Shown: positions 33,066-54,599 of the stretch, piece by piece
How the letters are laid out: every line of letters starts with the position of its first letter
Numbering within the stretch: position 1 is the first letter of the stretch
Source of the DNA: Bacillota bacterium
Lineage (GTDB): Bacteria > Bacillota > Ch66 > Ch109
Assembly: GCA_050952625.1 (NCBI GenBank)
Contig: JBMNLH010000008.1
Location: 10,293 to 74,292 of the forward strand
DNA: 64,000 nucleotides
Direction: 5' to 3'
Program-made: the position numbers and the translations under genes
Notes under the pieces: generated by a model
What the model was told of the DNA's origin: nothing
The model's database searches: none
Seen by the model: the letters and a program-made list of their open reading frames with translations, nothing else

Positions 33066-35768
33066 TTAACTCGCCTTTTCCACCCGCACCGCACAGACTT
33101 TAAACTCCGGAATTTTGGCCACCGGATCCAGAGCCGCATTAGTCAAGAGATTAGCCGCAGCCTCGGCGAAGTGGAAGGGCATGAACACCACCTCTTCCCG
33201 CACCCGGTTGGTCAAAAGGGCCTTGACTTTCAACTGTCCCCGACGGCTGGTCAACTGGACCATTTCTCCTTCTGTAATCCCCAGTTGCTCCGCTCGCACC
33301 TGGTTGATCTCGACCCAGGCTTCCGGGACAAACTCATCCAGAGCTTTACTCCGCCGGGTCATGGTGCCGGTGTGGTAGTGGTAATAAGACCGCCCGGTAG
33401 TCAGGACCAGTGGATAGTCCTGATCCGGGTTTTCCGCCGGTGGTTTAAATTCAACCGGATGGAACTTGCCCTGACCTCGGGTAAATCTGCCTTTGTGCAG
33501 GTAACTGGTCCCAGGGTGGTCTTCCGCCGGACAAGGCCAGGGCAGTCCGCCGCCTTCCTCCAATCGCTGATAGGTTATGCCGGCATAGGAGGCGGTTAAC
33601 TGCCGGATCTCCTCAAAAACCTCTTCCGCAGAGGCATAGTGCATGGGATACCCCATCTGGTTGGCTAGGGCCATGATAATTTCCAGATCGGTCATGGCCT
33701 TCCCCGGCGGGTTGATCGCCTTCCGTACCCGCTGCACCCGTCGCTCGGTATTGGTAAAGGTCCCATCCTTTTCGGCAAAGCTGGCGGTCGGCAAGACAAC
33801 GTCAGCCAATTTTGCGGTTTCCGTCAGGAAAATATCCTGAACCACAAAGAAATCCAAATTGTTAAACGCCTTTTCCACGTGGTTTAGGTCCGGATCGCTA
33901 ACCATTGGGTTTTCGCCGATCAGGTACATTCCTTTGATCCGCCCCGCATGAGTCGCCTCCATGGCCTCAGTCAGCGGCAGCCCTGGCTGAGCCGGCAAAG
34001 AATTGACTCCCCAAACCTGGGCAAATCGGGCCCGCACCTCTTCGCTGATTACCGGCTGGTAAGCGGTCAAGACATTGGGCAGCCCGCCCATGTCACAGGC
34101 TCCCTGGACATTGTTCTGTCCGCGCAACGGATTAACCCCGGTTCCTTCCTTGCCCACGTTGCCGGTGAGCATGGCTAGATTGGCTGCGGACCAAACATTA
34201 TCCACTCCCACACTGTGCTGCGTCAAACCCATACAGTAGACGATCGAAGCTCGCTTTGCCTGAGCGTACAGCCGGGCCGCCCGGATGATATCTTCCCCCG
34301 GCACCCCGGTAATCTCTGCGACGTACTCCGGGGTATAGCGGTCAAGCAGGACTTTTAATTCTTCAAAACCCTCGGTTCGCTCCTTAATAAATTCCTGATC
34401 CTGCAGCCCCTCTTCTAAAATAATCCGCATCAGACCGTTCAGCAGGGCCACATCGGTCCCCGGCCGAATCGGCAGATGAATTTCCGCTGACTCCGCCAAA
34501 TCGACCCGTCGAGGATCCACGACAATTAGTTTTGTTTTTCCCTGACGAACCGCCTGTTTGATCTGCATCCCCACCACCGGGTGATTGCTGTAAGTATTAG
34601 AGCCAAGAATAAGAATAACCTCAGCTGTCTGCAGTTCCTGAATCGAATTGGTCATTGCTCCGCTGCCAAATGCTGTCGCCAGACCGGCGACGGTCACGGA
34701 GTGTCAGAGGCGGGCGCAGTGGTCAACATTATTAGTACCCAGCACCGCCCGAGCAAACTTTTGAACCAGGTAGTTTTCTTCATTGGTAATCCGTGCTGAG
34801 CTCACCACCATTAGCGAATCTGGTCCGTGCTGCACCTTGATCTCGCCTAACCGGCTGGCTACCAAACTCAAGGCTTCCTCCCAGGTAGCCGGCCGAAATT
34901 CCCCGTTTTCTTTAATTAATGGCTCGGTTAGCCGGTCCGGGCTGTTGATGAATTCCCAGCCATACCGGCCCTTGACGCACAGGGCTCCTTTATTGACCGG
35001 ACTATGTACCGGCGACCGATTTGAACTAACCCCCACTACCTGATTATCCCGAACATTCAACTCCAGGGCGCACCCCACCCCACAGTAACCGCAAGTGGTC
35101 AAAACCTTCCGGGTTTCCCAGCGTCGGGCCAAACCCTGTTCTGGACGATTGGTCAGGGCCCCGGTTGGACAGACCATCACACACTGGCCGCAAAAGATGC
35201 AGGTAGATTCCGCCAAGGTGCCATCAATCCCGGCGCAAATGCTGGCCTGATGTCCCCGATTTTCCACATTCAAGGCAAAGGCCCCGGTGATTTCCTCACA
35301 CGCCCGAACGCACTTGGTGCACATGATGCATTTATTGTAATCCCGCACAATAAACGGGTTAGGGTCTTTAACCTCGTAACGGTAGGGACCGCCGTCCTGA
35401 AAACGACTGCCTCTGACCCCGTAACGGTAAGCATAATCCTGCAACTGACAATCCCCGGACTTCTCGCAAGTCAGGCAGTCCTGAGGGTGATTGGCCAGCA
35501 ACAGTTCCAAAACCAGGCGTCGGGCCTCAACGACTGAAGGACTTTCAGTTTGAATAACCATCCCTTCCGCAACCGGGGTGGTGCAGGAAGTCGGCAAGTT
35601 ACGCCAACCTTGAATCTCAACGACACACATTCGGCAAGAGCCGACCAGGCGCAGCGCCGGGTCATAACACAGGGTCGGAATCTCGATCCCCTGTTCCCGG
35701 GCCACCTCCAGGATGGTCCGGCCGGGCTCTGCCTGTATTTGACGATTATTTATCGTTAGATTAATCAA
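33066..35768 (-). CDS. fdhA: selenocysteine formate dehydrogenase alpha subunit (~900 aa, in-frame UGA at 34706-34704)
   Basis: ORFs 34704-35768 and 33066-34697 are in frame across CARL-UGA-HS; N-terminal Fe-S domains; PLRGQNNVQG. Confidence 0.95.
34673..34706 (-). promoter_or_regulatory. bacterial SECIS element
   Basis: UGA followed by the hairpin GUCGCC-GGUCU-GGCGAC. Confidence 0.85.
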
Positions 35769-48544: not shown

Positions 48545-49225
48545 CTATTTTGGGGACTGGTTCTTAACCATAACTGTGTCTACCAGCCACTGGCACCACT
48601 CAGCGATGCCTTCACCGGTTTTGGCCGATACCGGAAAGACCTTTGCCTGAGGATTCAGTTCGGCCAGATCTTTGCCTAAGACATCCAGACTAAAATCAGT
48701 GTACGGCTGCAAATCCAGCTTATTCACCAAAATGGCTCTAGATTCCCGAAACATTAACGGATACTTGGTTGGTTTATCATTTCCCTCGGTAACACTGATC
48801 ACCATGGCCTTAAGGTCTTCCCCCAGATCGAATTCAGCCGGACAAACCAGGTTCCCGACATTCTCAATGACTAACAGGTCTAGCTCATTCAGGGGCAGAT
48901 TCTGCACTGACCGCAAGATCATATTAGCGTCTAGATGACAGGCCCCATCTGTATTAATTTGCACCACTGGTATTCCGTGGGCAGCGATCCGCTCTGCGTC
49001 CCGGGTCGTGCAAATATCCCCTTCAACAACGCCTACCCGCAACTGATCACCTAAGGTCTCAATCGTCTTCTCCAGGATCGTCGTTTTACCGGCTCCTGGA
49101 GCACTCATCAAATTAAGAACAAAAACACCTTTGCGCGCAAATAACTGTCGATTTTGTTCGGCAATGGCTGTGTTGGCATCTAAAATGTTGCTGACTAATT
49201 CAACTTTCAATTGTTTATCCCTCAC
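48545..49225 (-). CDS. hypB: HypB GTPase
   Basis: SAPGAGKT, GACHLDA, ENVGNLVCP. Confidence 0.96.
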   Translation of the reverse strand: MRDKQLKVELVSNILDANTAIAEQNRQLFARKGVFVLNLMSAPGAGKTTILEKTIETLGDQLRVGVVEGDICTTRDAERIAAHGIPVVQINTDGACHLDANMILRSVQNLPLNELDLLVIENVGNLVCPAEFDLGEDLKAMVISVTEGNDKPTKYPLMFRESRAILVNKLDLQPYTDFSLDVLGKDLAELNPQAKVFPVSAKTGEGIAEWCQWLVDTVMVKNQSPK

Positions 49226-49488
49226 TTTTTTATTTACTTCTATTATCTGTTTTGAACTTATCTGTTTTGAACTGTCTTGCTGTCTTGTCCAAAACCGGTC
49301 CCTTTATTCGCTTTATACCTTATCAGTCCTGGCATCTTCTAAACACTTGTCAGGCGGCCAAAGATGATTTTATCACCTAGACAATCATACTCCTATTATA
49401 TCACTTTTGTTAATAATATTTATAACAGATATTTATACATTAAGGCAAAGACCATAACTTATTAAAAACTTTAAAAGCTTTTAATAAA

Positions 49489-49833
49489 CTAATCCCCCTC
49501 ATAATAATCAACGTAAAGTTCACGGCCGCCTTCTATTAGATTGTTTGAACCGGCACACTCAGGGCAAACAAAACGGTAGCCATCCACCGGGTAGAGGGTG
49601 CCACAGGCTAGACAGCGGACGGTGATTTCTTTTTCCTCAATTTCTAAAATCGCCCCTTTCAACCAGGTTTCTGTTTCCGAGAATACCTCAAAAGCAAACC
49701 GCAGAGAATCCGGCTGGGCCGCGGTCATCTGACCAACAACTAACTTAACAAAAGAAACCTTTTTGATCCCTTCTCGTTGTACACTTTCCCGCAGGATCCG
49801 AACTACCTGTTGCATTAAGCCCAGTTCGTGCAA
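49489..49833 (-). CDS. hypA: HypA nickel chaperone
   Basis: MHE start; two CxxC motifs; GREL. Confidence 0.96.
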   Translation of the reverse strand: MHELGLMQQVVRILRESVQREGIKKVSFVKLVVGQMTAAQPDSLRFAFEVFSETETWLKGAILEIEEKEITVRCLACGTLYPVDGYRFVCPECAGSNNLIEGGRELYVDYYEGD

Positions 49834-49945
49834 AAAATTTTCACTCCCTCACCAGATTACGGTCCCGTCAGACATTAAATTCAGACATTAAACATTCCCA
49901 TTATTCCAAAAACAACTCAATTCAAAATTAAATATTTCGTATACT

Positions 49946-49980
49946 AACAAAACCGACTCCCTTTATTTAAAGGAGCCGGT
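49946..49980 (-). terminator. intrinsic terminator downstream of the Moco riboswitch
   Basis: ACCGGCTCCTTT-AAAT-AAAGGGAGTCGGT-TTTGTT. Confidence 0.8.
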
Positions 49981-50007
49981 CCACGCCAAAATAAATGGCC
50001 AAAATCT

Positions 50008-50130
50008 ACTCCTTTCCAAAAGGGAGGCGCATCCGTTTCCGTCTGACCTGCCACAGCCATTAATGCACCCTGTCGGCCATCCTCCCATGAAACCGAAAAA
50101 TCGGTCTTTTAGGCTAGAATGGCTCGGAGA
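50008..50130 (-). ncRNA. Moco RNA motif (molybdenum-cofactor riboswitch, P3-containing)
   Basis: CUCCGAG...CCUAA...CAUGG, P3 GCCGACAG/CUGUGGC, GAAA tetraloop, GCCUCCC..GGAAAGGAG 3' end. Confidence 0.85.
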
Positions 50131-50167
50131 CAATATTAAATTGGGCATCGCAACCTATCAAGGTAAA

Positions 50168-50192
50168 ATTCGACGCAAATAGTCAAATTCCT
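50168..50192 (-). promoter_or_regulatory. sigmaH-like promoter
   Basis: AGGA-17-GAAT; same spacing at 52749-52725 and 54576-54552. Confidence 0.55.
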
Positions 50193-52606: not shown

Positions 52607-52763
52607 TATCTTTACCGCCCTTCATCGGCAAAGGCGTTGGTTTATCCACAGATATATCCACAACCTGTGTACAGTTTATATACAACTTTTATACAAATTT
52701 CTTAAAATCCCGAGTGCCAATGTTATTCTACATTTCATAAAATAATCCTGCTAGGACCGCAAA

Positions 52764-54513: not shown

Positions 54514-54599
54514 ACCCCTCCTGTATAGAAAGATTAGGTTACATGAGCATTATTCGCTAAATCAATAGGATTTCCTGCTATGTAACAAATTTTTTTGCA

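Follow-up and report, generated by a model that had tools for sequence, protein, structure and literature searches.

The hypA leader and its riboswitch

In silico analysis of a 64,000-nt stretch of DNA from a Bacillota bacterium (contig JBMNLH010000008.1, positions 10,293 to 74,292, referred to here as the window) has located a putative riboswitch of the molybdenum and tungsten cofactor (Moco and Wco) class on the minus strand. It stands between a Ppx/GppA phosphatase gene (ppx), which lies upstream on the same strand, and hypA, which encodes a nickel metallochaperone and is followed by hypB and the genes of a [NiFe] hydrogenase. The features of the leader and its first gene are as follows:

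50166..50192, minus strand: sigmaH-type promoter-like element, AGGAATT-N11-GTCGAATTT; consensus match, conserved, sigH present
49993..50141, minus strand: Moco/Wco-class aptamer without stem P3; RF01055 50.4 against 36 bits, P1, P2, P4 and P5 by RNAalifold, covariation; P1 core 50009-50129
50042..50061, minus strand: P4a, bulged hairpin of 20 nt inserted into P4 (5' strand, two base pairs below the GAAA tetraloop); 12-aptamer alignment, covariation
49964..50020, minus strand: antiterminator, aptamer 3' strand UUUGGAAAGGAG (50009-50020) with terminator 5' arm (49964-49975); RNAalifold consensus of 5 units
49985..50000, minus strand: small conserved hairpin between P1 and the terminator, inside the antiterminator; fold and alignment
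49946..49981, minus strand: intrinsic terminator, hairpin and U tract; sequence and fold, hairpin and U tract in 7/7 units
49939..49944, minus strand: GTATAC box just 3' of the terminator, possibly a secondary promoter or operator; by eye, 5/6 hypA-proximal units
49489..49833, minus strand: hypA, nickel metallochaperone; TIGR00100 91.1 against 88.1 bits, Pfam HypA E 9e-29, MHE and two CxxC motifs, TTG start

RF01055 (Molybdenum/Tungsten riboswitch aptamer) is the single Rfam 15 match in the whole window. It occupies 49993-50141 (minus strand), covers the full model length (positions 1-135/135) and, with 50.4 bits (E 4.3e-9), clears the gathering score of 36. An earlier reading made from the letters alone (the sequence-only reading) had described a complete Moco-type aptamer at 50130-50008 and proposed a check with the Rfam covariance model (CM); its coordinates are accurate, and the check gives a significant match. 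From the sequence itself the P1 core is read at 50129-50009. The minimum free energy fold of 49930-50145 consists of the aptamer and the terminator, with a z-score of -3.6 against shuffles. Short open reading frames (ORFs) overlap the leader, one of them overlapping the aptamer.

In the CM alignments the columns of stem P3 are gaps in the hypA copy, in 6/6 other copies of the genome and in all relatives. According to the available text of Regulski et al. 2008 (PMC2408646), the motif is divided by the presence or absence of P3, and the RNAs lacking it (58/176) have been proposed as tungsten-cofactor sensors. The same text describes a P4 tetraloop of the GNRA type and, in P2, a receptor bulge. 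Their counterparts GGAAAC (P4 tetraloop) and CCUAA...AUGG (P2 bulge) are, at the sequence level, invariant or nearly so in 12/12 aligned aptamers. As judged from its sequence, the hypA-leader RNA is a member of the P3-less Moco class, the proposed tungsten-cofactor (Tuco/Wco) sensors, whose ligand it would share.

The P1-P2-P4-P5 architecture is recovered by RNAalifold on six hypA-linked aptamers, together with the extra hairpin P4a. In these six related sequences 94.8% of the cells pair, compared to 32-45% when the partners are slid by 1-3 columns, and both-sided changes occur in 8/35 pairs, a number matched by 3/500 shuffles. Since both pairing and both-sided changes exceed the slid and shuffled controls, the structure is beyond chance. 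P4a (helix 6 of the alignment) shows both-sided changes in three of its five pairs, with 90% of cells paired; it is present in every hypA-linked aptamer and in 0/6 other aptamers of the genome. The hypA-linked aptamers of relatives score 43.9-52.8 bits with RF01055, and the hypA copy scores below its six sister copies (50 against 66-83 bits). The element is very probably functional.

The aptamer is followed by a 13-14 bp hairpin and then TTTTGTT (49981-49946, minus strand), in agreement with the strong terminator placed by the sequence-only reading at 49980-49946. The hairpin and U tract are kept in all seven hypA-linked units despite differing stem sequences. A simple terminator scan gave no entry for this terminator because of a bulge and a G-U pair in its stem, and the scan has not been used as evidence against terminators elsewhere. 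When five units are extended through the terminator, RNAalifold prefers a 12-bp antiterminator helix enclosing the small hairpin. The sister copies located before uptake genes have the same platform design.

Transcription termination with an OFF response to high cofactor is well supported by this predicted architecture, since a ligand-stabilised P1 would remove the antiterminator and let the terminator form; the conserved antiterminator thus backs the OFF logic of the earlier reading. With plentiful cofactor, P1 would close, the terminator would form, and the transcript would end about 115 nt ahead of hypA. With scarce cofactor, the aptamer 3' strand would pair with the terminator 5' arm and RNA polymerase would read into hypA and, at least in some species, onward into hypB and the [NiFe] hydrogenase genes. 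The fold implies that the direction of control in vivo would likewise be OFF by cofactor.

The hypA riboswitch would be transcribed from its own sigmaH-type promoter. The sigmaH consensus is printed in the available part of PMC8510167 as RNAGGAWWW (-35) / RNNGAATWW (-10), and full matches to it number three in the window, against 0.10 expected. An AGGAWWW-N11-GTCGAATWW element is located 63-162 nt upstream of the aptamer in five of six complete hypA-linked units; the sixth fails at the last W only. The genome encodes a sigH ortholog (equivalog model 374 bits against a cut-off of 294.8), and two sister riboswitches carry the same type of promoter. The two further matches of the window, at 52723-52749 and 54550-54576 (both minus strand), lie in the divIC / yabP-yabQ gene region. 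A sigma70-like TTGATA-17-TAATAT (50161-50133) has been discarded as a candidate riboswitch promoter, since transcription from it would start within P1 and a contig from an RNA library begins further upstream, at 50146.

Transcript evidence comes from assembled contigs, in which transcript ends are not provable and DNA contamination of the RNA libraries is possible. Contigs from four RNA libraries (three studies) cover hypA, hydrogenase genes and ppx. One contig of 195 nt, from an anaerobic-digester RNA library, begins just 5' of the aptamer (50146) and stops where the terminator stem ends (49952), which is a weak hint of a terminated leader.

The hyp-hydrogenase gene cluster

The start codon of hypA (TTG, 49833) is situated about 110 nt past the terminator. 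Its product keeps M1, H2 and E3 of the nickel site and C74, C77, C90 and C93 of the CxxC zinc motifs invariant in five sequences, and it is the only HypA-family gene of the genome (single PF01155 match). The genes next in line on the same strand are:

48545..49225, minus strand: hypB; TIGR00073 273 against a cut-off of 121 bits
44924..48080, minus strand: membrane-bound [NiFe] hydrogenase (small subunit, large subunit, cytochrome b); Pfam and NCBIfam matches

Both hypA and hypB, placed behind the terminator by the earlier reading, exceed their equivalog cut-offs. From alignment with relatives, the true start of hypB is probably a TTG near 49204. The hydrogenase small subunit carries an SRRDFLK Tat motif, and the large subunit ends in DPCFGC. 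After cytochrome b there follow, on the same strand, a HycI-type protease gene, hypF, hypD, hypE, NuoE/NuoF-like genes, FdhA, focA and arsR/arsP; the hypFCDE maturation genes lie in the run downstream of the hydrogenase. The same-strand run downstream of the riboswitch contains no molybdenum (Mo) or tungsten (W) transport or biosynthesis gene, in keeping with the earlier statement that no Mo gene lies directly downstream. The sole Mo/W enzyme of the run is a selenocysteine formate dehydrogenase (FDH), FdhA, about 14 kb downstream of the riboswitch (33066-35768, minus strand); it forms one 900-codon frame with a single in-frame TGA (U355, in CARLUHS), which ORF finders present as two ORFs.

The spacer between hypA and hypB measures 31 nt in one relative (G004), about 100 nt in another (G002), about 185 nt in a third (G005) and about 285 nt in the window. 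In the window the spacer (49226-49488, minus strand) holds an AT-only 14-nt inverted repeat, a hairpin, at 49459-49487, a TGaTATAAT element (TGnTATAAT) at 49395-49403 and an exact 15-nt tandem repeat at 49243-49272. The spacer of G005 is A/C-rich and G-poor. Given the variable spacer, with its TGaTATAAT in the window, hypA certainly heads the regulated genes; read-through probably extends to hypB and the hydrogenase genes in some species, and these later genes may also have promoters of their own. Of the 18-kb same-strand run which the sequence-only reading had placed behind the riboswitch, the content of hydrogenase, hyp and FDH genes stands; control of the whole run is not supported, in view of a spacer of 31 to about 285 nt and the TGnTATAAT element in the window.

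Sister riboswitches and distribution among relatives

The genome of the window (G000; 2.9 Mb, 95.9% complete) contains seven RF01055 matches, all without P3. The six sister copies (contig C1) precede (i) a FecCD-type ABC transporter and a radical-SAM gene; (ii) a TrmO_N/FmdE gene and ModD; (iii) a TupA-like ABC transporter; (iv, v) two sets of surface-protein genes; and (vi) one is an orphan. A hairpin and U tract are visible behind five of the six, the copy before the TupA-like gene being ambiguous in this respect; the TupA-like binding protein scores 216 bits, below the equivalog cut-off of 400. The surface proteins are very large and contain Big_2, SLH, Shr-like and Oxidored_molyb domains. 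The orphan aptamer and its terminator (L011; C1:145478-145611, minus strand) are oriented head-on to a plus-strand Cu_amine_oxidN1/DUF6612 gene, and no same-strand ORF of at least 50 amino acids follows the aptamer for about 1.8 kb.

The invariant core nucleotides of the hypA-linked aptamers are all common to the six sister copies, including those before the TupA-like and ModD genes. A CM built from the six hypA-linked aptamers and run on 151 genomes of the phylum gives 131-154 bits only in G000, G002 and G004; the next-best match scores 72.8 bits and is located ahead of tupABC-like and moeA genes.

HypA relatives are found in 31/61 related genomes. Among the 20 best hypA loci of relatives, Rfam places the motif before hypA in three (G004, G002 and G005, with 66-68% HypA identity, from two genera other than that of the window) and in none of the other 17. 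In G005 two complete promoter-aptamer-terminator units stand in tandem before hypA. Among 40 metagenome loci the motif occurs in two, the two closest (68% and 65% HypA identity). The survey of relatives suggested by the earlier reading has therefore placed the motif before hypA in three more species and two metagenome contigs, and in no relative does a Mo gene separate the motif from hypA. Loci L035-L064 and L067-L104 were screened by regular expression only, which is cruder than a CM. The scan of named genomes, whose output omits the family of the window, yielded 21 HypA loci, all of at most 46% identity, with no Moco core near hypA by regular expression; one of its loci (L046) has a match to the Moco-core expression 3.7 kb upstream.

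The hydrogenase-hyp cluster downstream of hypA is syntenic in relatives without the riboswitch. In G004 (L105) hypD is split into two ORFs (290 and 142 amino acids), a response-regulator/GGDEF/HD gene and cbiMNQO-type transporter genes are situated inside the hyp cluster, and an [FeFe] hydrogenase, not FdhA, stands behind the NuoE/NuoF-like pair. At the ppx-hypA junction of G003 (L018 1858-2124) there is a tandemly duplicated unit of about 160-185 nt, with blocks 79-87% identical and, at E <= 1, no Rfam match in the spacer; judged from its sequence, the duplicated unit may be a different hypA leader element.

Comparison with known systems and proposed role

The sequence-only reading had held that the motif normally precedes Mo genes. 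Taken as meaning only Mo genes this is too strong, since the accessible text of Sherlock et al. 2022 (PMC9481103) reports tungsten-cofactor riboswitches before a "nickel and zinc binding hydrogenase" gene, in one sentence that gives no organism, mechanism or rationale. That description almost certainly includes hypA-type genes, and the supplement of the paper may list these very loci. The two cases share a tungsten-cofactor-class aptamer before a hydrogenase-related nickel/zinc-binding gene, and G005 has such a doublet before hypA. In contrast to that report, single copies prevail here (5/6 loci), and details of platform, promoter, distribution and genomic context are available. Within the available main text of Regulski et al. 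2008 (PMC2408646) hypA, nickel and hydrogenase are not mentioned, and its supplement, as far as stored, lists neither hypA nor HypB nor nickel; hydrogenase occurs there just in generic "Fe-S-cluster-containing hydrogenase component" COG labels. In the literature on a link between Moco/Wco riboswitches and hypA nothing was found that explains or tests it, and PMC9481103 alone makes the link.

With the P3-lacking subgroup of RF01055 the hypA element shares the consensus fold, the conserved nucleotides, the P4 GAAA tetraloop, the P2 CCUAA...AUGG bulge, the missing P3 and a terminator-type OFF platform. However, a nickel chaperone gene lies downstream of it instead of Mo/W transport, pterin synthesis or a Mo/W enzyme, P4a has been added, and the CM score is lower. 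That usual gene association is seen in the sister TupA-like and ModD copies and is absent from the hypA copy. The E. coli moaA element, an OFF switch (PMC2408646), has the same cofactor-dependent logic. It differs in possessing P3, in acting on translation through a ribosome-binding site within P1 and in controlling cofactor synthesis, whereas the hypA element lacks P3, employs a terminator and precedes the pathway of another metal. The triple array of Syntrophomonas wolfei, as given in the available text of Regulski 2008, also consists of repeated P3-less aptamers, each with a terminator, in an anaerobic Firmicute; its operon encodes molybdopterin synthesis and molybdate/tungstate transport, where here hypA is found. 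The hypA element belongs to an established riboswitch class, from which it departs by a new structural feature (P4a) and by an unusual target, the latter with one line of precedent.

The reading favoured here, and held to be reasonably probable, is that of a functional P3-less riboswitch which has its own sigmaH-type promoter and terminates transcription before hypA when the cofactor is plentiful, coupling nickel insertion to the W/Mo-cofactor pool. Several observations weigh against it. On established knowledge hypA is no strong control point, as additional nickel partly restores hypA mutants in other bacteria. The sequence GTATAC-N2-AATAyTT lies 5-20 nt past the terminator U tract in five of six hypA-proximal units (window, L016, L017, L065, L066), and this conserved box could be a riboswitch-independent second promoter for hypA. 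Among the RNA-library contigs listed, none bridges the terminator and hypA and none covers 49868-49951, a gap that counts neither for termination nor against read-through. The third-closest metagenome locus (L067, 58% HypA identity) passes from ppx straight into hypA without the motif, and G003 (same family, 49% HypA identity) keeps the ppx-hypA neighbourhood without a Moco RNA. The FDH of the same run is not a conserved neighbour: in G004 an [FeFe] hydrogenase takes its place, and G003 has neither. Finally, the structure of the Moco RNA is called unknown in the available part of a 2024 review (PMC11672702).

Alternatively, the riboswitch unit could be largely insulated from hypA, with promoters located past the terminator accounting for most transcription of hypA and the hydrogenase genes. 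Mostly short terminated RNA would then be made, with minor read-through; it might serve as a small RNA dependent on the cofactor or represent a leftover regulatory module. This would suit the position of the box just past the U tract, its extended -10-like form TGGTATACT in some species, the TGaTATAAT of the hypA-hypB spacer, the RNA-library contig that equals the terminated leader with none of those listed bridging to hypA, and the orphan aptamer and terminator elsewhere in the genome, which have no same-strand downstream gene. However, the antiterminator is conserved, which makes sense only if read-through matters; the unit always stands 110-230 nt ahead of hypA on the same strand, at six loci with no gene between; and the tandem duplication preserves the order unit-unit-hypA. 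Insulation is considered unlikely. It is quite improbable that the P4a-bearing subclass has switched its ligand to something related to nickel or hydrogenase maturation in place of the W/Mo cofactor. P4a is confined to hypA-linked copies, its dedicated CM separates G000, G002 and G004 from the next match in the 151 genomes, and the downstream gene is unrelated to Mo/W. Nevertheless, the core positions CUCCGAG, CCUAA, AUGG, GGCCGAUAGGG, GGAAAC, GCCUCCC and UGGAAAGGAG are identical to those of the TupA-like and ModD aptamers of the same cell, and P4a bulges out two base pairs beneath the tetraloop, distant from the conserved junction. A new ligand is disfavoured because the core is unchanged, and the "variant ligand" alternative of the sequence-only reading loses ground accordingly.

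Less probable again is a second job of HypA, or of HypA-HypB, in W/Mo cofactor or metal handling, which would make hypA part of a cofactor-starvation regulon. Co-regulation with uptake-type genes points in this direction, as aptamer class, terminator design and promoter type are common to two other units. Against this stand the canonical HypA binding sites for nickel (MHE) and zinc (2x CxxC), the passing of equivalog models for hydrogenase maturation by both proteins, and the position of both genes within a complete hyp-hydrogenase cluster that stays syntenic in relatives without the riboswitch. The faintest chance is given to the "relic" of the earlier reading, a decaying remnant after loss of a Mo/W gene between the motif and hypA. 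Neighbourhoods of the required kind exist: in G051, a genome of another family, tupABC-like genes headed by a Moco aptamer stand on the same strand as a NiFe hydrogenase-hypAB block, about 5 kb upstream of it. Yet at six loci in at least three genera the aptamer core, terminator, antiterminator and promoter are kept with compensatory changes, and the whole unit is duplicated in one species. Insertion of a module, not deletion of a gene, fits because ppx-hypA adjacency without an intervening gene is the older state (G003, L067). On these comparisons, one sub-lineage appears to have gained the riboswitch module at a ppx-hypA junction that already existed, and to have retained it since. The G051 locus itself (L138) continues, about 5 kb after the aptamer and tupABC-like genes, with NiFe small and large subunit genes, hypA, hypB and hypD, and an opposite-strand ORF lies between the two blocks.

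NiFe large-subunit genes are present at three places in the genome, with one further weak match, and there is one [FeFe] hydrogenase. Molybdopterin-oxidoreductase genes number three, two of them with an in-frame TGA like selenocysteine FDHs. Neither the AOR family nor modA nor acetyl-CoA synthase was found in the genome at its 95.9% completeness. Most of the cofactor clients found are formate dehydrogenases, as two of the three molybdopterin oxidoreductases are of this type and no AOR was found; these FDHs could use either W or Mo. Since hypA is the sole HypA gene, the favoured reading would make nickel insertion into every NiFe hydrogenase dependent on the W/Mo-cofactor pool; hypA, which serves at least three such enzymes, would be a bottleneck for all of them.

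De-repression of hypA under cofactor shortage would shift capacity from formate to H2 handling, in line with the proposal of the sequence-only reading. The likely purpose would be more hydrogenase maturation when FDHs lack cofactor, and effort saved when they are supplied. With two of three Mo/W-pterin oxidoreductases being selenocysteine-type FDHs, such a formate-to-H2 switch is plausible. The stronger version, in which the tungsten-cofactor pool is the master dial, via one RNA, of the entire [NiFe]-hydrogenase maturation, with formate or H2 chosen as electron currency by tungsten supply in these anaerobic-digester bacteria, is put forward tentatively and seems rather doubtful; it would amount to a direct cross-metal (W to Ni) regulatory link without a protein sensor.

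Cofactor riboswitches normally govern the supply of their own cofactor or its client enzymes; here a W/Mo sensor would gate the nickel chaperone of another enzyme class. If the favoured reading is true, read-through into hypA rises when W/Mo is short, and the locus is a simple example of the status of one trace metal re-allocating another and a candidate mechanism for the formate/hydrogen balance in fermenting and syntrophic anaerobes. Dosing of biogas reactors with W, Mo, Ni and selenium (Se) is routine. By titles in the reference list of PMC8892533, work on syntrophs has addressed fdh and hyd transcription when Mo, W or Se is withheld. The DNA of the window occurs in bioreactor and anaerobic-digester metagenomes.

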